Assembly (NCBI RefSeq): GCF_004376175.1
Contig: NZ_SNUY01000068.1
Location: 1,865 to 21,088 of the forward strand
Length of the DNA stretch: 19,224 bases
Direction of reading: 5' to 3'
From: Halalkalibacterium halodurans
GTDB lineage: Bacteria > Bacillota > Bacilli > Bacillales > Bacillaceae_D
The notes under the pieces were generated by a model. That model ran no database searches, was not told the origin of the DNA, and was given only the letters and a program-made list of their open reading frames with translations. How positions within the stretch are numbered: the stretch's first letter is position 1; each line of letters opens with the position of its first letter. Below, piece after piece: positions 2,280 through 17,545 of the stretch. Position numbers and translations under genes: made by a program.

Positions 2280-3889
2280 CCTGAATCCGTGATAAAAAGC
2301 AGTGGTTCCATCGATTTTGATAAATCCTAATTTTCTTTCATTTCATTGCTTTTTAAGTTAAATACGTTCGTTTTTGAGTACACCAAATAAAACCTGCTCA
2401 GACATTTTTTTACAGGTCTTATTATCTATTCAGTTTCCTAGACTTATGTCGAAAATGAAAGATACAGACGCTTAAAAGTGGAAAACCAAGGACTATAGTT
2501 CCCGAATTTTAAGTAAACTTTCCGAGAGTGCTTAACAACTTTTGATGCCAGTGTAATTAAGTTCTGGATTACTGTTTTTACACGGCGACGAAAAACCTTT
2601 CTTTTAAGTGGTGCATCTCCTGATTTTAGGCTTTCTTGGCCAATAACCCGAAGGAGATTGTAGGTTAAACACCCAAGATGTAAGATCAATTCATTGGTGG
2701 CAAATTTACCCGAAGGAAAACGTTCTAGGTCTAAATCTGTTTTTAATTCACTGTGGAATTGTTCACAAGTGCCATGTTCGTGATATAGGCCAATTATTTC
2801 CTCTGTTTCATTAGGTAGGCTAGTCCAATAGCTCTCAAACTCAACATCTGGGACTAAGAGGATTTGTCCGTTTTTATCGATTGTCCTTTCCGTTACCTTA
2901 TAAACTTGGCGAATGGCTTTTTTCATTCCCTTTGGAGTTGTTTCTAAAGCACCATAGAATACACGTTTTCCTTCTCGCTCCTGAACGCATTTGCCGAATT
3001 GTTCGGCTACCATGAGCCAGTTTTCGGGCTTTTCACGGCGAGGGTTTCGTTTAATTATAAAATCGGCCTTTTCATTGACACAAACTTTTAGATTTTCGAC
3101 ACTATCGTTTCCTGCGTCCATACGGACTAGTAACGATAGGTCCGTAATCATCCGAGAATAGTTAATACTGTTCTCAAGAAATTTCTCAGTATCCTTTTGA
3201 ACGTGTGTGCTTCCTTCCCGAAGTTCCATATTTACAACGTAGCCTTCTAGACCTAAATAGGAAAAGTTAGGGGAATATCCATCACATCCTTTGTATGTGC
3301 GACTAACCCCTTCTTTCTTGGTATTTGAGTTATCAAATGGCGATACATCAATATCTAAAGGCACGTATGTTTTTTTATCACTAGTTACTGTTGGAGTGAC
3401 AGGAGAATCAAATTGCCGTATTAGTTTAGCCGATTCTTCTAGAACAATGGATTTCCATCCAGTCACCTTGGCAATTTGATCGAGACGTTGCCGTAGTGTG
3501 GGACTTGATGGAACCAATTTAATATCCAATGCACGATAAAAGAAGGGATCGTCTCGAAATTGTTCGATATGGTCGAAATCATTCTTACCTTGACACAATA
3601 GACCCACATAAGAAGTGGTAACATCACCATTAAGAATCTTCGGAGATGACTTAATTTCTGGAACCTTCAAGGATGAAAAACGTTTGTGAAACTTTGTCTT
3701 TGATAAAAGCAAACCTATTAAACCAAGACCTGAATGGGTCGTCAATGTATCATCGGAATTTTCTAATATAAACTTAACCAATTTCTACACCTGCCTGGTG
3801 AAATAAAATTATCAACATAAATCAGCTGATAACATTATTATAACAGGCTTTGGAGGCAATGTTGGAAATGATTTCATCACGGATTCAGG
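2280..3889 (-). mobile_element. IS element, IS1380-like (IS4 superfamily), 1610 bp
   Basis: Terminal inverted repeats: CCTGAATCCGTGAT at 2280-2293 and its exact reverse complement at 3876-3889 (14/14, 17/18 when extended). They are flanked by a 5-bp direct repeat ATATA (2275-2279 and 3890-3894). The element has a single transposase ORF filling the interior and is visibly more AT-rich than its neighbours. Confidence 0.85.
2444..3781 (-). CDS. DDE transposase, IS1380-family-like
   Basis: 445-aa ORF. N-terminal ..LTTHSGLGLIGLLL.., central ..GCDGYSPNF.. and ..RMDAGNDS.., and C-terminal ..EQFHSELKTDLDLERFPSGKFATNELILHLGCLTYNLL.. fit my recollection of IS1380/IS4-type DDE transposases. TTG start preceded by GGCAGGTG. 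Confidence 0.85.
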   Translation of the reverse strand: MVKFILENSDDTLTTHSGLGLIGLLLSKTKFHKRFSSLKVPEIKSSPKILNGDVTTSYVGLLCQGKNDFDHIEQFRDDPFFYRALDIKLVPSSPTLRQRLDQIAKVTGWKSIVLEESAKLIRQFDSPVTPTVTSDKKTYVPLDIDVSPFDNSNTKKEGVSRTYKGCDGYSPNFSYLGLEGYVVNMELREGSTHVQKDTEKFLENSINYSRMITDLSLLVRMDAGNDSVENLKVCVNEKADFIIKRNPRREKPENWLMVAEQFGKCVQEREGKRVFYGALETTPKGMKKAIRQVYKVTERTIDKNGQILLVPDVEFESYWTSLPNETEEIIGLYHEHGTCEQFHSELKTDLDLERFPSGKFATNELILHLGCLTYNLLRVIGQESLKSGDAPLKRKVFRRRVKTVIQNLITLASKVVKHSRKVYLKFGNYSPWFSTFKRLYLSFST

Positions 3890-3918: not shown

Positions 3919-4068
3919 ATGAACTTGGAAGTTTTTGCAGAGTATTTAAAAGGCATCGATCACCCTGATCACCGCGATCGAACAGAGGAGATATTATCGT
4001 GGGTTGCTGCTACATTCCCAAATTTAGAACCTAAAATGAAGTGGAATACGCCGATGTTTTCCAATCAA
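3919..4068 (+). pseudogene. DUF1801/YdhG-like protein, N-terminal half (50 codons) of a split gene
   Basis: Strong RBS TAGGAGG, then ATG at 3919. Translation [50 protein letters not shown], after which family similarity stops abruptly and the frame runs into unrelated residues to the stop at 4134. The missing half is at 11212-11427. Confidence 0.8.
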
Positions 4069-4163
4069 TCACAACCTTATCCAATAAGAAAAAAGGACAA
4101 ACCACTCAATTTGTCGAAGTTCTTCATCTATTAAACCTCTAACAAACAGCAAAGGAGCCCTAT

Positions 4164-5161
4164 ATGATCGCCAAACCTCGCAAAATCCCTATTCATATAT
4201 TGACAAATTAGAAGCTCTCCTCCGCCGAATCCCCGCTCATCATCCTAAAAAACTTCAAATTGAAGCCGATCTCGCCAAACGAAAAGCCGGTTACAAAGGA
4301 GAGTCCGCCCTCGATTATCATCTCAGCTTTCTGCCGCCAAAAGAGTACATCATTCTCCATGACCTTCGTCTACAAAGCGGCGAATATTTCTTTCAAATTG
4401 ATACACTCATCCTCACTCCAACTTATATCCTCATCATCGAAGTGAAGCATCTCTATGGAACGCTCTCATTTGAACCCGAATTTCAGCAGCTCATCCGCAC
4501 AACTCCTGATGCAGAAGACACATTTCCAGACCCCATTATTCAAGTCCAAAAGCAAGCTAGTCAACTGCGTCAATTTTTAAAGAAACTTAAATTCCCGGAT
4601 ATACCGGTTGAAACGCTGGTTGTGATTACGAATTCGCAAAGTCGTATATCCCTTTCCGACTCCACGACCTATACAAGAAAACATGTAATACGCGACACGG
4701 TATTGGTGAAGCGAATAGAGAAGCTGACCTCGCAATATACCACACTCATTTTCGACCCAAAGCTACTCAGAAAAGCAACTAGGATCTTACTTACCTCACA
4801 TATGCCATCAACATTTGAACCGCTCGAATTTTACCGAATTGAGCTAGACCAACTATTAGGTGGGGTTCACTGCCCGAAATGTGATGCCCTTCCTATGCGG
4901 AGATTACACGGGAAGTGGGTATGTCCAAGCTGCTACTACCAATCAAAATTAGCGCATATAAATAGCTTAGTAGATTATGTGTTACTCGTAAGTGACACGA
5001 TTACGAATAGGGAAGCGTGTGAATTCCTGAAAATAGCGAAAGATACTGCGAGGAGAATGTTAAAATCATTAAAAACTGTAGAGACTGGTACTACGAAGGA
5101 TAAAAAGTTTGAGTTGGTCATAGATAATCTAGTAAAAAGCATAAAAAAAGAAGACATCTAA
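4164..5161 (+). pseudogene. NERD-domain protein with C-terminal Zn-ribbon/HTH, disrupted by a 1-nt frameshift
   Basis: RBS AAAGGAG, then ATG at 4164. MIAKPRKIPIHILTN hits TAG at 4209-4211. The -1 frame continues KLEALLRRIPAHHPKKLQIEADLAKRKAGYKGESALDYHLSFLPPKEYIILHDLRLQSGEYFFQIDTLILTPTYILIIEVKHLYGTL... to 5161. One extra A in the A3 run at 4205-4207 would restore a single ORF. CPKC..CPSC Zn-ribbon near the C-terminus. Confidence 0.8.
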
Positions 5162-5175
5162 TGAAGAAGATGTCT
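5152..5175 (+). terminator. Hairpin overlapping the NERD stop codon
   Basis: AGACATCT (5152-5159), 8-nt loop, AGATGTCT (5168-5175), followed by CCTTATT. Confidence 0.45.
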
Positions 5176-5204
5176 CCTTATTGGAACTACAGAAGAGTGT
5201 AGAC

Positions 5205-5326
5205 GCTTAATTCTAGCAAACGAAACTTTTTATTTAGCAAACAACATAAGCATTCTAGCAAATAATTAAATAATCCAGCGAAAATCATCATTATTTTAGC
5301 AAACCCATACATTTAATGGGAAACAA
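5205..5326 (+). repeat. Phased direct-repeat module 1: five ATTyTAGCAAA-type cores every 20-21 bp plus a TGGGAAAC tail unit
   Basis: AGC(A/G)AA cores start at 5215, 5236, 5257, 5277 and 5298, giving spacings of 21, 21, 20 and 21. The fourth unit is the CCAGCGAAAAT variant. The tail TGGGAAAC begins at 5317. All units are on the same strand. Confidence 0.85.
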
Positions 5327-5354
5327 AAAGGCTGCAGCATCAACTGCAACCTTT
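5327..5354 (-). terminator. Rho-independent terminator of hmp
   Basis: On the minus strand: AAAGGTTGCAG, loop TTGATG, CTGCAGCCTTT, followed by TTGTTTCCC. It lies immediately after the hmp stop. Confidence 0.7.
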
Positions 5355-5362
5355 CCCCCTCA

Positions 5363-6586
5363 CTACTTCGCCTCAACCTCAGCATCCAAACTCGCCGCTG
5401 GTCCAAAGAACTCATAATGTACGCGTTCGTCGCTCACGCCCATCTCAGCTAAATACTGCTTCATTACTCTCATAAATGGAACCGGTCCGCAGAAGTAGAA
5501 GTCAGCCTCAGCCGCCACGTCACCTGCTGCAGCTTTGAGCCATTTCAAATCAATCAAGCCTTTAAGATCAAACGCACCGCGCTCAACATCAGCTGTCGTC
5601 GGATTAGCATACACAGTGTAATTCTTCACCTGATGATTCGCACTAGCCAGCTCTTCCACATGCTTGCCAAATGCTTGCACCGCACCGTTTTCAGCTGCGT
5701 GGATGAAAATTACTTCACGCTCAGGCTGCACTTCAACCAATGTGTTCAGCATGCTCAACATTGGTGTCACGCCGACACCGCCGCCAATGAGGACAACCGG
5801 CTTCTCAGAATCTGTATTTAAAACGAAATCTCCGGCTGGTGCTGTCAGTTCAACTTTATCGCCTTCAACCACTTTTTCATGCAGGTAGCTTGATACGACG
5901 ACATCATTTTCATGTTTTACGCTGATGCGGTAATAATCTTTTCCTGAAGCATCAGATAAGCTGTATTGACGTAGATGAGTATACTCGCTTTCCTCAGGCT
6001 TCACTTTAATCGTCACATATTGGCCCGCTTTAAATTCAGCAATCTTTCCACCGTCATATGGCTGTAAGTAGAAGGAGGTAATCACATCGCTCTCGACTAC
6101 TTTTTTAGCGACGACAAATTCACGGAAATCAGCCCAGCCGCCAGCTTGATTTTCAGCTTCTTCATACATTTCTTTTTCCACGCCGATAAAGGCATTAGCA
6201 ATCACGCCGTACGCCTCGCCCCAGGCAGCAAGAATCTCATCAGTGGCCGCATCGCCCAGCACCTCAACCATCGCATCAAGCAATGTTTCACCGACAATCG
6301 GATAATGCTCAGCTTTAACGCCAAGACTTCTATGCTTGTGACCAATCTGCTTTACAATCGGAATGATCTCTTCTAAGCGGTCGATATGAAGAGCTGCCGC
6401 ATACACTGAGTTTGCCAACGCTGTTTGCTGACGGCCTTGTTTTTGATTCGCATGATTAAATATATTTAATAGTTCAGGGTGACGCTCGAATAATAGTTGA
6501 TAAAAACGAGTCGTAATCTTTGTTCCGTGGACTTCCAATACAGGAACCGTAGACTTTATAATAGAAATAGTTTCTTTAGATAACAT
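5363..6586 (-). CDS. hmp: Flavohemoglobin / nitric oxide dioxygenase
   Basis: N-terminal globin domain (MLSKETISIIKSTVPVLEVHGTKITTRFYQLLFERHPELLNIFN...) fused to an FAD/NAD-binding reductase domain (RQYSLSD, GGGVGVTPMLSML). ATG at 6586 lies 9 nt after AAAGGAG. The ORF-track start at 6592 is an upstream GTG. Confidence 0.93.
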   Translation of the reverse strand: MLSKETISIIKSTVPVLEVHGTKITTRFYQLLFERHPELLNIFNHANQKQGRQQTALANSVYAAALHIDRLEEIIPIVKQIGHKHRSLGVKAEHYPIVGETLLDAMVEVLGDAATDEILAAWGEAYGVIANAFIGVEKEMYEEAENQAGGWADFREFVVAKKVVESDVITSFYLQPYDGGKIAEFKAGQYVTIKVKPEESEYTHLRQYSLSDASGKDYYRISVKHENDVVVSSYLHEKVVEGDKVELTAPAGDFVLNTDSEKPVVLIGGGVGVTPMLSMLNTLVEVQPEREVIFIHAAENGAVQAFGKHVEELASANHQVKNYTVYANPTTADVERGAFDLKGLIDLKWLKAAAGDVAAEADFYFCGPVPFMRVMKQYLAEMGVSDERVHYEFFGPAASLDAEVEAK

Positions 6587-6615
6587 ATGCACTCGCTCCT
6601 TTTCGTCTCTGTTTT

Positions 6616-6633
6616 CTACACTTATAAGTATAG
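6616..6633. promoter_or_regulatory. 18-bp imperfect palindrome overlapping the putative hmp -10 and transcription start (candidate repressor operator)
   Basis: CTACACTTA|TAAGTATAG, with half-sites matching 8 of 9. The minus-strand TATACT -10 candidate (6632-6627) lies inside it. Confidence 0.4.
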
Positions 6634-6653
6634 TCGGCTGAGAAGTGGGAGGG

Positions 6654-6669
6654 TGTGATATACATCACA
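6654..6669. promoter_or_regulatory. Crp/Fnr-family (or Rex-type) operator, TGTGA-N6-TCACA
   Basis: Perfect TGTGATATACATCACA in the divergent hmp / crp-fnr intergenic region. Its centre (6661.5) is about 41.5 nt upstream of the transcription start inferred from the TATACT -10, which is class II activator geometry. Confidence 0.7.
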
Positions 6670-6718
6670 ATAGATGTGACTAACTGGTGAAATCGAACAG
6701 GTGAAAGGAGGGACCTAC

Positions 6719-7420
6719 GTGCTAAATAACGATAAGATTAAGGAATTACTAACTCATTTTCCACTCTTTAAACGGCTAAACGATACGGCGCTCGATCAGA
6801 TTGTTGATATCTCAATATATCGAGAGTGGGGGCGGGGCAGTTATATTTTTATGCAGGATGAGCCGATTGAAAATGTGTATTTCATTTACAGGGGCCGCAT
6901 CAAAATTTATAAAGCTGATAACCGCGGACGCGAGCAGATTGTGGCGATCTTGCGAGAAGGCGAGATGTTTCCTCATGTCGGTTTCTTCAGAAAAGGTGGC
7001 TATCCGGCTTATGCGCAGGTGGTCGATCATGCCCAGCTTGTCGTTATTCCGATTGGTGATTTTGAAGACATTCTCCGCAAAAATCCAGAGCTGTGCATCC
7101 AAGTGTTCCGTGTGCTAGGGGAGAAGATCGTTGACTTGCAAGACCGTCTTGAAGCACAGATCGTCAACAATACATACGAACAAATTATTAAACTGATTAT
7201 CCGCCTCGGAGAAACGAACGGCGAGCCTGCAGAAGACGGAATAACAGTGATGAAATCTGATTACACCAATCAGCAGCTAGCAAAAATGATTGGTACGACG
7301 AGAGAAACGGTTAATCGCACGCTGACCAAGCTCCGTAAAGAAGGCCTATTAAAAGAAAACGAAGGAAGCAGGCTCTGTTTTGTTCGCGAAGAAATGGAGG
7401 GGAAGCTCTACGGCGAGTAG
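6719..7420 (+). CDS. Crp/Fnr-family transcriptional regulator without an Fe-S cysteine cluster
   Basis: cNMP-binding-like beta-barrel (..YIFMQDEPIENVYFIYRGRIKIYK..) plus a C-terminal HTH (QQLAKMIGTTRETVNRTLTKLRKEGLL) with the RE..R recognition motif used by CRP/FNR for TGTGA half-sites. Only two Cys residues in the protein. GTG at 6719 lies 6 nt after AAAGGAGGG. The ORF-track start at 6701 is inside the RBS. Confidence 0.88.
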   Translation: MLNNDKIKELLTHFPLFKRLNDTALDQIVDISIYREWGRGSYIFMQDEPIENVYFIYRGRIKIYKADNRGREQIVAILREGEMFPHVGFFRKGGYPAYAQVVDHAQLVVIPIGDFEDILRKNPELCIQVFRVLGEKIVDLQDRLEAQIVNNTYEQIIKLIIRLGETNGEPAEDGITVMKSDYTNQQLAKMIGTTRETVNRTLTKLRKEGLLKENEGSRLCFVREEMEGKLYGE

Positions 7421-7521
7421 TGTTTCCTCTATAATAAATAAAAAAGACCTAGTCACTCCTATCTTTCGACACCCCGTCCTTCCCCCTTTGTGCAACCGAT
7501 TGCCTATTTTTCAGAAAATTG

Positions 7522-7551
7522 TTGCATTATAAACCAAGACCATGCTACAAT
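7522..7551 (+). promoter_or_regulatory. SigA-type promoter with extended -10 for the amylase gene
   Basis: TTGCAT (7522-7527), 18 nt of spacer, then TGcTACAAT (7543-7551). Confidence 0.5.
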
Positions 7552-7558
7552 AAAAAGC

Positions 7559-7572
7559 AGTAAGCGGTTTCA
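7559..7572 (+). promoter_or_regulatory. Candidate catabolite-responsive element (cre, CcpA site)
   Basis: AGTAAGCGGTTTCA against cre TGWAANCGNTNWCA has one mismatch, at the first T. It sits just downstream of the -10, the position I recall for amyO of B. subtilis amyE. Confidence 0.5.
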
Positions 7573-7609
7573 AGACTGCTATAATTCAAGAAAAAGAGAG
7601 GAGAATAAG

Positions 7610-10285
7610 ATGAAAAAGAGTGTAGTCTTAATCATGGTATTAAGCCTTTTATTATCGCTGTTTGTGCAACCGTTTGCACAAACGAACACCGCGGAGGCGG
7701 CAGGCGACCAAGTATACGATAAGGTTGTGCTGCGCGGGGAATCACCGCTGAGCTGGGACGGGGAGAATCACCCGCTCACATTTGATGAGTCAGAAGGCTT
7801 ATGGAAAAGCGAGCCTGTTACTCTATCCGGCGGAATTCAGTTTGAGTATAAATTCGTCATGGATAACGAGTGGCTCGCTGGTGACAATTTGCGATTCCAG
7901 GTGCCGCAGACAGGTGACTATGAATTTTATTTTGACCCAAGCGACCAGCGTAAAGTTGACGTAAGGCCAGCTACCGAGTACGACGGCTCGATTACGCTCC
8001 AATTAACGGTGCCAGAAGAAACACCAGATTGGGCCGTACCGACAGTCGCAACGAGCAATAACAGCTTCAATTACAGCGTGACACCGCTAGAGCGGGAAGG
8101 CGAGACGTTCACCGTTACGTTAAATGGCCAGGCGGGGGAGGAGCTAGAGTACCGCTACGGGCTAGGTGATTCGAAGTATCGTGAAGTCATTGAGGCTAAC
8201 CGCACCGCAACGTTTACTGAAGAAGGCACCGTTGTAGAAGACACGGTGACAGAATGGACAGGCCTTCCTGTGGCTAAAAATGTCTCTCACAACTTTAACC
8301 ACAACCCGTTCATCCCATCGCCTAATGATGATGTTGAGATTACAGTAGAAGTGGAGCATTACGGCCCGATTGATGAGGGCGGAATCTACTTTACAACAGA
8401 TGGAAGCACTCCGGCTGGCGCACGCGGGGAAGCAAGTTCTGGTGAGTTCTCTCCATTAGAGGTAGTCGAAACAAAAACAGAAAATAACTTGCAGCGCTCT
8501 ACTTTAAAAGGAGTGATCCCTAAGCAAGCAGACAGCACGCCGGTGAAATATGTCGTTGACGTGTGGGCAGCTGACGGCGAGGGGTCTCAATATGCCGATA
8601 CAAACAGCTTAACAAGCGCAGAAGCAACTGAGTTTGCCTACTATGTTGAGAATTACAGCTCACCAGACTGGGCGAAGGATGCAGTGATTTATCATATTTT
8701 TGTCGATCGATTTTATGATGGCAATCCAGATAATAATTTCGGGGTAGACCCAAGCCTTCCATTAGAAGAAGCATTAAAAGACTGGATGGGCGGAGATCTT
8801 GAAGGTGTACTTGCAAAGCTTGATTACATTGAAGAGCTTGGGGTAGATACGATTTGGCTGTCGCCAGTATTTGAAGGTCCATATTCGCACGGTTATCACC
8901 CGACAGACTTTATGGGGATTGATCCGAATTTCGGCACGCTTGAGGTATTAAAAGAATTAATTCATGAAGCGCATGATCGCGATATGAAAGTCATTTATGA
9001 TTTTGTCCCGAATCACACTTCAAGCGAGCATCCGTATTTCCAAGATGCGCTTGCAAACGGGGAAGACAGCCCGTATTACGACTGGTATACGTTCTATGAA
9101 GACGGCACTTACGAGACATTTTACGGCATTGAAGAGCTGCCGCAATTTAATAACGACCATCCGGAAGCACGTGATTATATGTTAAATGAGGTTGTTCCAT
9201 TTTGGTTAGAAGAGCTTGAATTTGACGGCTTGCGCTTAGATTATGCCAAAGGACCGAGCTACAGCTTTTGGGTCGATTTCCGTGATAAAGTGAAATCGAT
9301 TGATCCTGACATGTACGTATTTGGAGAGGTGTGGGATAGCCGCGAGAAAATCTCGAGCTATGCTGGAAAGCTTGATGGTTCACTGGACTTTGGTTTCCAC
9401 GATACATTTAAAGGAACATTTGCTTTTGACGGTTCGATGCAGTCTGTCGTGAACTATGTCGAAGAAAACGAAGCCGTGTACCACCCGGAATACATTATGA
9501 CGACATTCCTAGATAACCATGACTTGCCGCGCTTCTTATATGAAGCAGGCGGTAACACAGACAAGCTGAAGTTGGCATCATTCACGCAATTTATGCTGCC
9601 GGGCTCACCTGTTATCTATTACGGAACAGAAGTCGGTCTCTCGCAAAGTGCGAACCATAATGAGTTTAACGACTGGAAAGACCGCTGGTACCGCGAGTTC
9701 ATGATTTGGAATGAAGAAGAGCAGGATCAAGAATTGCTCAAACATTACCAAGAAATTATCGAGCTGCGCCAAAACCACTCAGCTCTTCGCACCGGTGACT
9801 TCCATGCGCATTCTGCAACGCGCGATGCTCTTCTGTTTGAGCGCAGTAATGAGGGAGAGCGTCTAATTGTTGCTGTTAATAAAGGAGCAGAAGCCGTGCT
9901 CGCATTAGATGAAGAGCTTGAGTTAGAGAATCTAGTAACAGGAGAGAGAATGACGGGTGACGAGTTGACTGTAGGAGCGAACTCATTTGCTGTGTATCAA
10001 GTTGTTGAGGAAGAAAAGGACATTGAACATGTCGTGCTGCGAGGCGTTCATGCTCAGGACATTGCTCTATCTTATGACGAGGCAGCAGGTGTGTGGCGTT
10101 CTGAAGGCATCCACTTGAAAAATAAGCAGAAGGTTACGTTCGAGTATGTGATAAACGGAGCGGAATCGACTAGTGAATTAACATTTACGCCTGATCGAGG
10201 CGGGAAATTCGAATTTATCTTTAATCCGGTGGAGCCAGAGCAAGTAACGGTGCTCCATCCGAGTGACAAGCGAGGTCAGAAATAA
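7610..10285 (+). CDS. Secreted multi-domain GH13 alpha-amylase-family enzyme (891 aa)
   Basis: RBS AGAGAGGAG, then ATG at 7610. Signal peptide MKKSVVLIMVLSLLLSLFVQPFAQTNTAEA|AG. GH13 conserved regions DFVPNHTS, GLRLDYAKG, VFGEVWD and FLDNHDLPRF. N- and C-terminal beta-sandwich, CBM-like modules. The ORF-track start at 7490 has no RBS and precedes the signal peptide. Confidence 0.9.
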   Translation: MKKSVVLIMVLSLLLSLFVQPFAQTNTAEAAGDQVYDKVVLRGESPLSWDGENHPLTFDESEGLWKSEPVTLSGGIQFEYKFVMDNEWLAGDNLRFQVPQTGDYEFYFDPSDQRKVDVRPATEYDGSITLQLTVPEETPDWAVPTVATSNNSFNYSVTPLEREGETFTVTLNGQAGEELEYRYGLGDSKYREVIEANRTATFTEEGTVVEDTVTEWTGLPVAKNVSHNFNHNPFIPSPNDDVEITVEVEHYGPIDEGGIYFTTDGSTPAGARGEASSGEFSPLEVVETKTENNLQRSTLKGVIPKQADSTPVKYVVDVWAADGEGSQYADTNSLTSAEATEFAYYVENYSSPDWAKDAVIYHIFVDRFYDGNPDNNFGVDPSLPLEEALKDWMGGDLEGVLAKLDYIEELGVDTIWLSPVFEGPYSHGYHPTDFMGIDPNFGTLEVLKELIHEAHDRDMKVIYDFVPNHTSSEHPYFQDALANGEDSPYYDWYTFYEDGTYETFYGIEELPQFNNDHPEARDYMLNEVVPFWLEELEFDGLRLDYAKGPSYSFWVDFRDKVKSIDPDMYVFGEVWDSREKISSYAGKLDGSLDFGFHDTFKGTFAFDGSMQSVVNYVEENEAVYHPEYIMTTFLDNHDLPRFLYEAGGNTDKLKLASFTQFMLPGSPVIYYGTEVGLSQSANHNEFNDWKDRWYREFMIWNEEEQDQELLKHYQEIIELRQNHSALRTGDFHAHSATRDALLFERSNEGERLIVAVNKGAEAVLALDEELELENLVTGERMTGDELTVGANSFAVYQVVEEEKDIEHVVLRGVHAQDIALSYDEAAGVWRSEGIHLKNKQKVTFEYVINGAESTSELTFTPDRGGKFEFIFNPVEPEQVTVLHPSDKRGQK

Positions 10286-10290
10286 GAAAA

Positions 10291-10314
10291 AGTGCGCTGC
10301 GGCGCACTTTTTTT
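10291..10314 (+). terminator. Rho-independent terminator of the amylase gene
   Basis: AGTGCGC, loop TGCG, GCGCACT, followed by TTTTTT. Confidence 0.85.
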
Positions 10315-10325
10315 GTGTTGGGATA

Positions 10326-10455
10326 AGTCGATTTTAGCAATATAGGTGGTTATTTTAGCAAATTGAAGAGCGATTCCAGCAAATCAGCCATTTAACTAGC
10401 GAAAATCCAAATCATTTTAGCAAGCGCAGCAATATATTGGAAACTACTAATCTGC
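10326..10455 (+). repeat. Phased direct-repeat module 2, collinear with module 1
   Basis: AGC cores start at 10336, 10357, 10378, 10398 and 10419. The spacings 21, 21, 20, 21 are identical to module 1, and the fourth unit is again the AGCGAAAAT variant. Tail ATATTGGAAACTAC at 10434-10447. Confidence 0.85.
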
Positions 10456-10463
10456 TCAAGCCG

Positions 10464-10590
10464 GCCGTAATTCGAACAGACACCTCGATAATTCAAACAA
10501 ACAAATAGATTATTTGAACAAACCCCTCATTAATTCGAACAACTTTCCACTTAATTCGAACAAACGCAACTAAATATTGGAAACTAGCTC
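10464..10590 (+). repeat. Phased direct-repeat module 3: TAATTCGAACAAAC-type cores every 21 bp plus a TGGAAAC tail
   Basis: (C/T)GAACA cores start at 10473, 10494, 10515, 10536 and 10557, all spaced 21 bp. Tail ATATTGGAAACTAG at 10574-10587, 140 bp after the module 2 tail. Confidence 0.85.
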
Positions 10591-11086
10591 GTGCCATCCA
10601 CCAAATTCCCCGCTTCTATCCGAACTAATAGTAATTATAAGGAACTTGACGATACCATCCTCACCTTTTTCATCCCAACCTTCCTCATTTTCCTAATCTC
10701 AAAACCGATTTATCCCATATTGGTCGCATAGTACGTGAATGTGGAAAAATGTCGATAAATCTGAATCGCCCCCGAGTAAACCGCGTCCTTACAGCCTTTA
10801 ATGTGGAAAGGTTATCTATGTCCTACCAACTCATCACCCAAACTTATAACCATTTTCTCATATGTTACTTTAACGCACGAAAGTAATAACTTGATTTATA
10901 AGCCGGATGTTCTACTTTTATTCAGCTCGATGGACGGACAGCCAAAAGGGCAGTCGTTTGATTATAATGTGCTATGGCAAGCCATTGTTCATGAATATTT
11001 CAAATTTGTGAGCTTTCGGGGACTCGGTGCTAATGCACCAATAAATGTCCTGCGATGGTTAAAAAAACAGAAAAGAGGTATATGAA

Positions 11087-11211
11087 ATGGCTTTTATACC
11101 GATCTTCATTTTTGTCATTTTTATTTTGGTGCTTGGAATCAGAGAGAAGATCATTCACAAACGAAACATCGACTCCATTCCCGTACGCGTCAACATTAAT
11201 GGAATCAGAGG
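11087..11211 (+). pseudogene. 5' stub (42 codons) of a poly-gamma-glutamate synthase PgsB/CapB-like gene
   Basis: RBS AAGAGG, then ATG at 11087. [42 protein letters not shown] matches my recollection of the B. subtilis PgsB N-terminus (..[27 protein letters not shown]..). Similarity ends exactly at the junction with the DUF1801 C-half. The frame then runs 13 unrelated codons to TGA at 11252-11254. Confidence 0.65.
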
Positions 11212-11427
11212 GGTACATTTATCATTGGCTTCTCCACCTCGAAACATCATTTGAGCGTTTCACCCGAAGAAATAGGCATTTCGCAATTTGCCGATGCTAT
11301 TGCACAAGCGGGCTACAGCGCGACCAAAGGCTTGTTTCGAATTCCAGTCCATTACGAACTGCTTAAACAAATGATTGAGTTTAATATTCAGGATAAGGAA
11401 GGCTATTCCACTTTTTGGCGTAAATAA
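11212..11427 (+). pseudogene. DUF1801/YdhG-like protein, C-terminal half (72 codons) of the split gene
   Basis: [71 protein letters not shown]. It has no start codon or RBS of its own and is on the same strand as the N-half at 3919-4068. Confidence 0.8.
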
Positions 11428-11504
11428 AAGGTATCCATGTTGTCGACTTCCTTCAGAGTTCCGCGATAAAATTTGACTGCAAACTTTCTGAGAGTGTTCA
11501 CAAA

Positions 11505-11537
11505 GAAGCCTTGTTTCGTTTGTTGAAACGAGGCTTC
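11505..11537. terminator. 13-bp stem hairpin downstream of the DUF1801 C-half
   Basis: GAAGCCTTGTTTC, loop GTTTGTT, GAAACGAGGCTTC (one G-U pair). There is no clear T-run on the plus strand. Confidence 0.4.
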
Positions 11538-11662
11538 CCGTAATCAATACAAGGTTTATAGCCGCTCGTGTGAAGGATCGTCTGCACTATCATCTTAAAT
11601 AGATACATTCTACCCCCGATTATTTCACAAGAAGTGTAAATTGGGGTTTTGCACCTGAAAAT

Positions 11663-12811
11663 TTGGCATCAAATGACATGCTAGGGGGCGACCGCTATGC
11701 AGGCATACCAGCTGCCCTATTAACGCTCGGTTCAGCTGCGGCTGCCTTTTTTGTTGGTCGATTATCCGATCGGTTCGGTCGACGAATGGGGCTAGGAACT
11801 GGCTTCTTGTTAGGGGGGGTCGGTGCGATCATCGTTATCTATGCGGCCGTAAGTAACAGCGTCATCCTTCTCTTTCTTGGACTGCTTCTAAACGGTGCAG
11901 GAAACGCCACCAACCTGCAGGCGCGTTATGCAGGGACTGATTTAGCAAAACCGAAACAACGAGCAACCGCCATTAGTATGGCGATGGTCGCGACCACTTT
12001 TGGTGCCGTTGCTGGTCCAAATCTAGTGAATGTGATGGGAGATGTAGCTGATTCCTTCGGTGTTCCAACTCTCGCTGGACCGTTTATATTAGCAACGGTC
12101 GCTTATTTACTAGCTGGATTCATCTTTTTTGTGTTTCTCCGTCCAGATCCATTTCTCGTTGCAAAGCAATCGTCAAACAAGAGGCTGATCACGAAAAACA
12201 TAACCATTCAGCCAAAACAACAGAGAAGCAACTTATGTCAACCATCGCAAAACGGGGGATCATTGTTGGAACGACGGTCATGGTCTTAACCCAAATGGTC
12301 ATGGTAGCGATTATGACGATGACACCCGTCCATATGCAACACCACGGGCACGGGCTACAAGAGATCGGTCTTGTCATTAGCATTCACATTGGAGCCATGT
12401 ACCTTCCATCTCTTGTGACAGGTGTTCTCGTCGATAAGCTCGGACGAACAACAATGTCGGTAACCTCTGGCGTCATTTTACTTAGTGCAAGGACTGCTCG
12501 CTGCGGTTGCCCCTGGTGATTCGTTAGCCGTTTTGATCATCGCACTCGCCTTGTTAGGACTCGGATGGAATTTAGGGTTAATCAGTGGAACAGCTATGAT
12601 TGTCGATGCAACCCATCCTGCAACCCGAGCGAAAACGCAAGGAACAATTGATGTTCTCGTCGGACTGTCGGGCGCAGCAGGAGGGGCTCTGTCCGGTATG
12701 GTCGTCGCCCAATCTAGCTATGCTACTTTGTCGCTTGCAGGAGGGACACTTGCCCTTGCTCTCGTCCCGGTCATGATTTGGTATTTGAAGAAAAATGCAA
12801 GAGCATCATAA
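11663..12811 (+). pseudogene. MFS transporter, 5'-truncated with two frameshifts
   Basis: Three consecutive overlapping ORFs (11663-12289, 12235-12519, 12485-12811) together read as one 12-TM-type MFS protein, with motif GRLSDRFGRR between TM2 and TM3. Frame changes occur near 12165 and near 12488 (extra A in AGTGCAAGGACTG). There is no TM1 or start codon, and an in-frame stop sits at 11600-11602. Confidence 0.75.
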
Positions 12812-17143: not shown

Positions 17144-17545
17144 ATGGCGCATGAAAAAGAAACAACGGCCACTCACAGTCACAGCTTTCCTTGGATGCAC
17201 GTTGTTGGCTTTGCCCTTTCGATTATTTTTACGCTTTTGGCCGTATGGGTTATGAGTCAGACGCATTGGTCATGGAATGTTCGTGTGATCGTCATTTTCA
17301 TCTTTGCCTTCATCCAAATGACGGTCCAGCTTCATATGTTCATGCATATGGGGGAAGGGAAGTCAGGAACCGTACAGATCGGTCATACGTGGTTTGCCAT
17401 CGCCATTGCGGTTATTATTGTCGTTGGCTCTTATCTCGTATTAACGACAGGGCACCTTCATACCGATCATGAAAATCACTTGGATCATGGAGGTCATGAA
17501 AATCACATGAACCACGGGGAGCACGAAGATCACTCAGGACACTAA
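17144..17545 (+). CDS. qoxD: Cytochrome aa3 quinol oxidase subunit IV
   Basis: 133 aa. HSHSFPWMHVVGFALSIIFTLLAVW, three TM segments and a His-rich tail. The ATG directly abuts the qoxC stop. Confidence 0.88.
   Translation: MAHEKETTATHSHSFPWMHVVGFALSIIFTLLAVWVMSQTHWSWNVRVIVIFIFAFIQMTVQLHMFMHMGEGKSGTVQIGHTWFAIAIAVIIVVGSYLVLTTGHLHTDHENHLDHGGHENHMNHGEHEDHSGH

Follow-up and report, generated by a model that had tools for sequence, protein, structure and literature searches.

The closest described counterparts of the system reported here are the iterons of theta plasmids, exemplified by P1 RepA with incC and incA and by F RepE with its flanking 19-bp repeats. In such plasmids about five direct repeats of 19-22 bp, spaced by two helical turns, lie just upstream of the gene of the binding protein, more arrays lie downstream, the repeats are private to each replicon and the protein regulates its own gene. 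The same features, with binding and autoregulation as proposals, belong to a gene family that is represented in a stretch of 19,224 nucleotides from Halalkalibacterium halodurans (assembly GCF_004376175.1, contig NZ_SNUY01000068.1, positions 1,865 to 21,088 of the forward strand; here named the window), where three repeat modules, M1, M2 and M3, accompany a gene for a protein with a nuclease-related domain (NERD). M1 follows the NERD gene, while M2 and M3 lie beyond a block of three genes (hmp, crp/fnr and an amylase gene). Comparison of this region with its relatives suggests that the modules are probably iteron-like arrays of cognate binding sites for the adjoining NERD protein, with a proposed autoregulatory role, and that the three-gene block is resident DNA and not cargo. 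Unlike the iteron-binding proteins, the NERD protein is not a Rep but a predicted PD-ExK nuclease with a zinc ribbon and a single winged helix, its family is chromosomal with a sigma-H-type promoter, and no origin features were seen.

Other described systems share part of this layout. In type II partition centromeres, such as R1 parC with ParR and pSK41 parC with its 20-bp tandem repeats, five phased direct repeats are placed around the promoter of the operon for the binding protein, which coats them cooperatively and regulates its own expression, two properties whose counterparts are proposed here. The NERD system differs in lacking an actin-like or other motor gene, in being a single-gene system with a nuclease domain, and in having several diverged chromosomal paralogues per genome. 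The ends of Tn7 and Mu are also arrays of ~20-bp sites closing in a constant terminal sequence, and the inverted layout with outward tails seen in the Alkalihalophilus clade, together with a nuclease of the restriction-enzyme fold as in TnsA, adds to the likeness; unlike Tn7 and Mu, there is no DDE partner here, arrays are direct or single in most genera, the family is essentially absent from mobile replicons, and neither recent copies nor target duplications were seen. Finally, I-TevI is a site-specific nuclease that doubles as an autorepressor, and the RTP/Ter system of Bacillus subtilis is a fork-arrest arrangement; in both, a cleaving or fork-arresting protein binds its own promoter, and the oriented sites of RTP flank its own gene. 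These have one operator or paired A/B sites instead of five phased monomer sites, and they lack the hypervariable specificity and many paralogues of the NERD family, which in turn has no intron or terminus context.

The three modules lie on the forward strand and follow one design, in which five cores of ~11 bp, in steps of 21, 21, 20-21 and 21 bp, are followed by a tail (ATATTGGAAAC). M1 (5205-5326) has five units of the flavour here called type A, with core ATTYTAGCAAA starting at 5210, 5231, 5252, 5272 and 5293, and the tail CATACATTTAATGGGAAAC. M2 (10326-10446) has the same core at 10331, 10352, 10373, 10393 and 10414 and the tail GCAGCAATATATTGGAAAC, while M3 (10466-10586) is of type B flavour, with core AATTCGAACAAA at 10470, 10491, 10512, 10533 and 10554 and the tail GCAACTAAATATTGGAAAC, a close variant of that of M2; the M1 tail is looser. 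M1 and M2 are collinear unit for unit, since they have in common the odd 21, 21, 20, 21 spacing and a deviant fourth unit (AGCGAAAAT), and M3 starts 140 bp after the start of M2. The end of M1, at 5324-5326, touches the hmp terminator hairpin (5327-5350, reverse strand), and the amylase terminator hairpin (10287-10314) is located directly before M2. Reading of the sequence thus reproduced, to within 1-2 nt, the module positions given in a preliminary description of this DNA, as well as the direct, collinear modules bracketing the block, the 140-bp tandem of M2 and M3, and the adjacent terminators. That description had also regarded the bracketing modules as copies of the same element; the common design and collinear units hold, but M1 and M2 are only 60.5% identical overall, with the identity concentrated in the cores and a longest identical run of ~10-11 nt.

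Allowing at most one mismatch, the motif ATTYKARCARA had 16 matches in the window, where 9.7 were expected by chance over both strands; 13 of the 16 were inside the ~360 bp occupied by the modules, all on the forward strand and in 21-bp phase. An autocorrelation scan at lags 20-22 detected zero arrays in 1.15 Mb of shuffled sequence. The modules are thus well above chance expectation. A degenerate tail-like sequence (CCGAACTAATAGTAATTATAAGGAAC) at 10620-10646, on the forward strand, for which relatives show ACAAACAGTAATATTTTGGAAAAA, could tentatively be regarded as the remnant of a fourth module, with low confidence. The modules do not resemble CRISPR arrays, as the whole period is 21 bp with five units, and no cas genes were detected in a Pfam scan.

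The NERD gene of the window (4164-5161, forward strand; tblastn and Pfam NERD) carries a frameshift, a 2-bp insertion near 4197, after codon ~11 (ATTCATATATTGAC, compared with ATTC--ATATTGAC in the relative L001). A tblastn search with protein P0001 matched its residues 1-12 and 11-331 in different frames, with 90% identity, so that the open reading frame (ORF) at 4442-5161, previously taken for the gene, is the in-frame remainder of a gene that is full-length at the DNA level. The frameshift reflects either a pseudogene or a sequencing error. A terminator-like stem-loop (5148-5179) overlaps the stop codon. The region before the gene (4067-4163, forward strand, aligned to L001 9905-10000) includes the last unit of an upstream module, here named M0, the promoter region and the ribosome-binding site (RBS); the promoter region contains sigma-H-like -35 and -10 elements (AAAGGACAA, 12 nt, GTCGAAGTT) that overlap the Spo0A-box-like TTTGTCGAA. 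In relatives the gene has 331-332 codons and modules on both sides, M0 being 80-190 bp upstream and inverted, with its tail outward, and M1 downstream; the orthologous M1 was present in L001-L003. The closest NERD proteins, from A. marmarensis and A. pseudofirmus, are 87-89% identical, and the window is taken to be Alkalihalophilus chromosomal DNA. The system in the window appears decayed, since the NERD gene is frameshifted, M0 has been lost except for the last unit next to an insertion sequence (IS), and the downstream gene pgsB is cut; the upstream array would have been lost at a rearrangement next to the IS.

The window protein scored 21.9 bits against Pfam NERD (PF08378), for which the cut-off is 22.1, because its ORF holds just the C-terminal part of the domain; full-length relatives carry PF08378. 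A profile of 28 homologues showed invariant D79 and K94, a near-invariant E92 (D...ExK) and four invariant cysteines, and the domain and these residues place the protein in the PD-(D/E)XK superfamily. The AlphaFold2 (AF2) model was confident (predicted local distance difference test, pLDDT, of 92.3), with a C-terminal helix-turn-helix-wing. Its Foldseek matches were PD-(D/E)XK nucleases only (VC1899, Bax1, Can2/Card1, R2 endonuclease and Hjc), through the N-terminal domain and with E >1e-3; a sequence search of the PDB gave no meaningful match. Residues and model together predict a protein that begins with a PD-ExK nuclease and ends in a winged helix, and that also contains a Cys4 zinc ribbon. 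NCBI labels such proteins as 'nuclease-related domain-containing protein'. PADLOC and NCBIfam gave sub-threshold matches to PglW, MADS6 and MkoA, restricted to a NERD region of ~100-150 residues; these defence systems, including BREX PglW, were discarded, as neither full-length matches nor conserved neighbours were found.

A profile search detected at least 552 loci in species-representative genomes, and the best 80 of these were kept for comparison; all come from Bacillaceae or closely related groups, with more than one locus from some genomes. At 50% identity the family falls into at least 1,117 clusters (E <=1e-30). It is almost all chromosomal, with one full-length match in 72,556 plasmids, on a 571-kb megaplasmid, and none in 50,697 phages. 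A plasmid Rep or phage origin was likewise discarded, given this scarcity and the fact that Pfam and NCBIfam find no domain other than NERD. No conserved partner gene was found, the largest neighbour cluster being present at 9 of the 80 loci. Genomes contain several NERD paralogues, ~40% identical and without near-identical copies, and some orthologues adjoin genes that are presumably the core genes rnr and smpB, provisionally identified from their N-terminal sequences.

Second NERD genes were also observed near the main one. Paralogues ~12 kb upstream are present in strain As8PL (L007 6999-7421) and A. lindianensis (L067), the latter with about nine GCACATA units upstream, and FJAT-45037 (L008) has a second homologue at 431-1288. 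The As8PL paralogue is followed by its own module and by a short minus-strand ORF that by eye resembles the 3' end of hmp, for which reason the segment of NERD, module and hmp appears duplicated.

Arrays were called from a 20-22-bp periodicity by lag autocorrelation, within 350 bp upstream or 300 bp downstream of each NERD gene. An array was present upstream at 55 of the 80 loci, downstream at 14 and in either position at 60, mostly with five units, with a density of 13 per 10 kb at NERD genes compared with 0.42 per 10 kb in the remainder of these loci. Five 20-21-bp units upstream of the gene thus match the phased ~17-22-bp direct repeats beside a binding-protein gene that characterize iterons, with binding as a prediction in this case. 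The core sequence differs in nearly every locus (for example CGCGCGAA, GGCCGGATTAT, TTCGTGCRGTT, TTGGATCATAAA, CCGTGAGTAA, GCCGATA and GGTAATA), and each paralogue has a private core. Autocorrelation matches in L017, L030 and L082 were coding repeats and not arrays. Flanking arrays are direct in L011, L012, L031, L032, L041, L060, L066, L067, L077, L079 and L083, and inverted with tails outward in Alkalihalophilus and FJAT-45037. Runs of several modules were found in L053, L074 and L083. Consecutive modules with a 20-21-bp period extend for up to ~1 kb in L053 (4877-5886), L074 (4823-5651 and 9426-10194) and L034 (780-1086), some of them differing in flavour from the adjoining NERD gene. As candidates for the tail, a family-wide motif was discarded, since only the Alkalihalophilus/FJAT-45037 clade has the tail, and so were a sigma-54 promoter and a DnaA box, whose spacing and order do not fit by eye.

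Most loci have a sigma-H-type promoter between the array and the start codon (consensus RNAGGAWWW, 11-12 nt, RNNGAATWW, as quoted in PMC8510167). A strict form of this pattern was found in 39 of the 80 upstream regions, in none of their reverse complements and in 2 shuffled sequences. No description of the association between gene and array was found in the literature, although most subscription journals were outside the coverage and this absence is no proof. The window can be regarded as carrying a degraded copy of a widespread system of gene and array, which would work much as iteron or centromere-type arrays do but falls outside all the families tested.

The relation between gene and array was most apparent at a single locus, compared in 12 Alkalihalophilus sequences (L001-L006, L009, L010 and L089-L092) from A. 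marmarensis, A. pseudofirmus, A. lindianensis, strain As8PL, and metagenome and Sequence Read Archive (SRA) contigs. At least four NERD alleles occur there, each with its own array flavour: allele A with TAGCAAA units (window and L001-L003), allele B with TTCGAACAAA units (L089 and L091), allele C with TATAAACGAA units (L004 and L009) and allele D with TTCCGACGAAA-type units (L006 and L010). DNA identity in 40-nt windows between L001 (type A) and types B and C revealed a mosaic. The upstream flank, terminator and tail kept 84-100% identity except in three windows, and extra sequence in L091 accounts for two of these; the M0 units were 35-69% identical, the promoter and NERD codons 1-195 were 72-98% identical, the NERD C-terminus fell to 38-62%, and M1 was diverged. 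Among alleles A to D, the winged helix and the arrays on either side of the gene vary, while the ~900 bp between remain 72-100% identical. Allele C departs from A only from residue ~288, in the winged helix (protein identity drops from 91% N-terminally through 86% in the central part to 49% C-terminally), yet the arrays on both sides of it are of another flavour. Simple hitch-hiking is an unlikely explanation for changes in M0 that go together with changes in the winged helix, with ~900 bp of conserved DNA in between.

Family-wide, the similarity of array motifs was correlated with winged-helix identity when the N-terminus was controlled for (partial Mantel test based on position weight matrices, 63 loci; rho 0.13, reached by 2 of 2000 permutations), and was uncorrelated with N-terminal identity (rho 0.005). 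In a cruder test, loci sharing the same top 7-mer gave no clear signal of C-terminal similarity.

In every locus of the marmarensis/pseudofirmus group that reaches past the amylase gene, M2 is of allele-A flavour and M3 is of allele-B flavour, that is, the flavour of the arrays flanking the allele-B NERD in L089 and L091, whatever the resident allele. Modules of the same flavour are 56-63% identical, and those of different flavours 42-52%. A. lindianensis has a single post-amylase array, in the flavour of its own NERD gene. FJAT-45037 (L008) has four modules of the same CGCGCGAA flavour (3621-3741, 5822-5941, 6978-7132 and 11408-11555), two on each side of the NERD gene with all tails pointing away from it; hmp and crp are enclosed by the modules of one side, and a gene for a 1,281-aa 5'-nucleotidase by those of the other. 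The cores of M2 and M3 vary less than their spacers (22/110 compared with 30/79 columns, p = 0.008), and units have been lost from M2 in L089 and from M3 in L006. Orphan arrays would accordingly follow resident specificity, and M2 and M3 are read as orphan cognate arrays, which could be distant docking sites or relics.

Because a 21-bp repeat corresponds to two helical turns, the cores of a module all lie on one face of the DNA. About five protomers may thus load side by side through their winged helices, one core each, on that face. Where the array lies upstream of the sigma-H-type promoter, its occupation would provide autoregulation at entry into stationary phase or sporulation, and the distant cognate arrays (M1 downstream, and M2 and M3 between the amylase gene and the pgs operon) could be additional places where the same protein docks or finds its target. 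In this explanation the three-gene block is resident chromosomal DNA that is by chance between M1 and the orphan arrays.

Several observations weigh against this explanation. About one quarter of the loci have no array at the threshold used, and some arrays lie between convergent genes (3'-3'), where a role as operator makes no sense. The upstream and downstream arrays of L006 are of somewhat different flavours, allele-C and allele-D strains retain M2 and M3 without a matching allele, and conservation of the M2 and M3 cores does not significantly exceed that of the pgs leader (p = 0.12). Recognition of the arrays by the NERD protein is deduced from co-variation alone, and the family-wide correlation with the winged helix, at rho 0.13, is significant but weak. 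In addition, a purely regulatory role leaves the conserved nuclease active site unexplained.

Provided that the arrays are indeed the cognate sites of the NERD protein, a family of more than 1,000 clusters would gain a testable DNA partner, a private five-unit array that tracks the winged helix, and would offer a natural library of orthogonal protein-DNA pairs for the winged-helix recognition code and for synthetic biology. The sigma-H-type promoter would point to a candidate function in stationary phase or sporulation for a multicopy Bacillaceae nuclease, and conspicuous intergenic arrays that annotation pipelines ignore would be explained.

The Alkalihalophilus locus is variable where the M1 tail meets the hmp terminator, a junction that contains 0-2 extra genes in four states: no extra gene (window, L004, L005, L006 and L009), a gene with an SLH domain (L001-L003), a DUF418 gene plus an SLH gene (L091 and L092), or a Zn-ribbon gene plus a TcaA-like gene (L089 and L090). 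The window lacks the 1,125-bp SLH segment of L001, with the breakpoint at 5324|5325, exactly where the M1 tail ends, while in allele-B strains the divergence point is ~30 bp past the tail. Intergenic regions of convergent genes are common insertion spots, so that the variation at this junction is by itself no proof that the module causes it. A small ORF with a good RBS (MKKLLPTICGTYSLEEVFELYLHSIK) was also observed within this variable region, beside M1, in A. pseudofirmus (L089 11195-11290); in the A. marmarensis copy (L091 12400-12470) ATA replaces ATG.

A role in cleavage or recombination, though unlikely, would fit a tail that stays constant along with the nuclease domain and an SLH indel whose breakpoint coincides with the tail end. 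In its boldest and rather speculative form, likewise unlikely, the family would consist of Bacillaceae-wide, sigma-H-timed, array-directed site-specific nucleases, each with a private five-site array on which an oligomer assembles to cut or recombine at the tail. If so, the arrays would be real hot spots that remodel neighbouring genes, as at the junction of the M1 tail and the hmp terminator, and the family would represent a programmable kind of DNA-transaction system, so far unrecognised, whose natural orthogonal specificities would number in the hundreds.

A related but more doubtful explanation is that the NERD gene and its arrays are, or once were, a transposon-like element, with the tail as cleavage terminus and the units as subterminal sites; M0 and M1 would be its inner ends, M2 and M3 alternative outer right ends, and the block captured passenger DNA. 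The inverted, tails-out placement of M0 and M1 in Alkalihalophilus and FJAT-45037, the four outward-pointing modules of the latter, the constancy of both tail and nuclease domain across flavours, and the indel ending exactly at the tail are consistent with such an element, as are the several paralogues per genome and the combination of nuclease and winged helix, an architecture known from TnsA. However, most other genera have direct flanking arrays or an upstream array only, and the tail is limited to one clade. The ~40% identity of the paralogues, with no near-identical copies, the location of some orthologues beside core genes (provisionally rnr and smpB) and the near absence of the family from plasmids and phages also argue against mobility, as does an insertion context that is constant across four Alkalihalophilus species, and no DDE or other strand-transfer enzyme was found.

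It is less probable still that another factor, or curvature from phased A-tracts, modulates nearby promoters such as those of pgs or the NERD gene, and that the co-variation is linkage within a fast-evolving segment. Many units do end in A-tracts phased at 21 bp, M2 and M3 are upstream of the pgs leader, and the Spo0A-box-like TTTGTCGAA adjoins or sits within many arrays. Nevertheless, simple linkage accounts poorly for a co-variation of M0 and winged helix that spans ~900 bp of 72-100% identical DNA, and a core private to each paralogue, a correlation with the winged helix and not the N-terminus, and arrays in 3'-3' intergenic regions also weigh against this view.

The preliminary description had proposed attachment-like modules, between which the block entered either by Campbell-type integration of a circular molecule or by insertion into a tandem array of modules. 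Besides the direct, collinear modules around the block and the varying gene content at the M1 tail, two observations agree with this: hmp and crp lie between two modules of the same orientation in FJAT-45037, though on the opposite side of the NERD gene, and As8PL has the second copy of NERD, module and hmp remnant 12 kb away. The comparison of relatives was nonetheless contrary to it. NERD, M1, hmp and crp had the order of the window in 12/12 Alkalihalophilus loci, the amylase gene was present wherever the contig reaches except in L003, and none of the 12 showed an empty site, with NERD followed by tandem modules. In long contigs the full order is the uxu operon, inverted M0, NERD, M1, 0-2 extra genes, hmp, crp/fnr, amylase, one or more modules, a leader of ~450 bp and pgsB. 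The sole loss of the amylase gene, in L003, was an internal deletion and not a module-to-module event, since the last ~100 bp of the gene and its terminator remain.

Other properties of the block and its modules also weigh against the proposal. Its identity to L001 (88.9%) is similar to that of the NERD segment (90.5%), and its G+C content (0.43-0.47) is like that of the flanks. Pfam found globin/FNR, Crp and amylase domains only, with no integrase or recombinase, the one transposase belonging to the IS outside the block. M1 and M2 share identical runs of at most 11 nt, and the flavour of M1 switches with the NERD allele while M2 remains type A. Near-identical end repeats, an integrase and an empty site, the signatures of a Campbell-type element, were thus all lacking. 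An origin of the block as integrated cargo is not supported, by either route, and the attachment-site explanation, already largely refuted, retains very little probability. By the refuting condition named in the preliminary description itself, polymorphism between the modules does exist, but it is located next to M1 and does not affect the block as a whole, and the idea of modules as hot spots survives for the M1-tail junction and not for the three-gene block. Outside Alkalihalophilus and FJAT-45037, hmp and crp do not adjoin the NERD gene. If the binding-site reading holds, this case would be a caution that direct repeats around genes need not signal insertion.

An integron-like cassette array is not indicated either, as there is no integrase and the direct repeats show no folding signal on 5/6 strands. 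That the modules encode a small RNA or transcribed repeat, read from a minus-strand promoter in the tail and unit 5 to a bidirectional hairpin, is hardly credible, for although M1 and M2 have a promoter-like TTTCCA-18-TGCTAAAAT on the minus strand with terminator-like hairpins to the left, and folding of the M3 minus strand, which has the palindrome TTCGAA in its units, is better than that of shuffled sequences (z = -2.65), no Rfam match was found in the window, the other five of the six module strands fold no better than shuffles, the promoter-like match is lost in other flavours such as CGCGCGAA, and the 21-bp phasing and winged-helix co-variation point to recognition of duplex DNA.

The genes of the block, which agree with those named in the preliminary description, are hmp, for a flavohaemoglobin (5363-6586, reverse strand; Pfam Globin, FAD_binding_6 and NAD_binding_1), with orthologues of 72-96% identity in all relatives; a crp/fnr-family regulator (6701-7420, forward strand; cNMP_binding and HTH_Crp_2), with orthologues in relatives; and a secreted enzyme of the alpha-amylase family (7610-10285, forward strand; Alpha-amylase 3e-70), whose likely start, MKKSVV, is inside the ORF beginning at 7490 and whose orthologues have 886-902 aa. 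The amylase terminator hairpin is kept even in L003.

By blastn, the window is colinear with L001 solely over 4067-11211, and these limits are not module edges. To the left, a permease, an IS transposase (DDE_Tnp_1_4, Pfam 2e-34; 2444-3781, reverse strand), located just left of the break, and an unrelated ORF replace the uxu operon of the relatives. To the right, pgsB/capB is represented by its first ~42 codons (11087-11211, forward strand), with tblastn matching only residues 14-42 of the L001 PgsB; the gene is cut at codon 42 and gives way to unrelated DNA, so that the window lacks the poly-gamma-glutamate operon. The colinear segment of 7.1 kb is therefore placed in a rearranged context in this genome. 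A major facilitator superfamily (MFS) transporter split into three ORFs (11663-12289, 12235-12519 and 12485-12811; the first fragment alone was scanned with Pfam) looks like another frameshifted gene and, together with NERD and pgsB, suggests a pseudogene-rich genome or an error-prone assembly.

The ~450-bp leader between M3 and pgsB (window 10600-11086) is well conserved across species (L001, L003, L004 and L006) and carries Spo0A-box-like TGTCGAT/TGTCGAA motifs, for example at 10738-10760, so it could possibly regulate pgs. Within this leader, the minus-strand ORF of 68 aa called in L001 is unlikely to be genuine. At the 3' end of the 17144-17545 ORF, a 27-nt sequence (TCATACCGATCATGAAAATCACTTGGA) is repeated in tandem at 17458-17511, with a second copy 78% identical; this repeat is unrelated to the modules.

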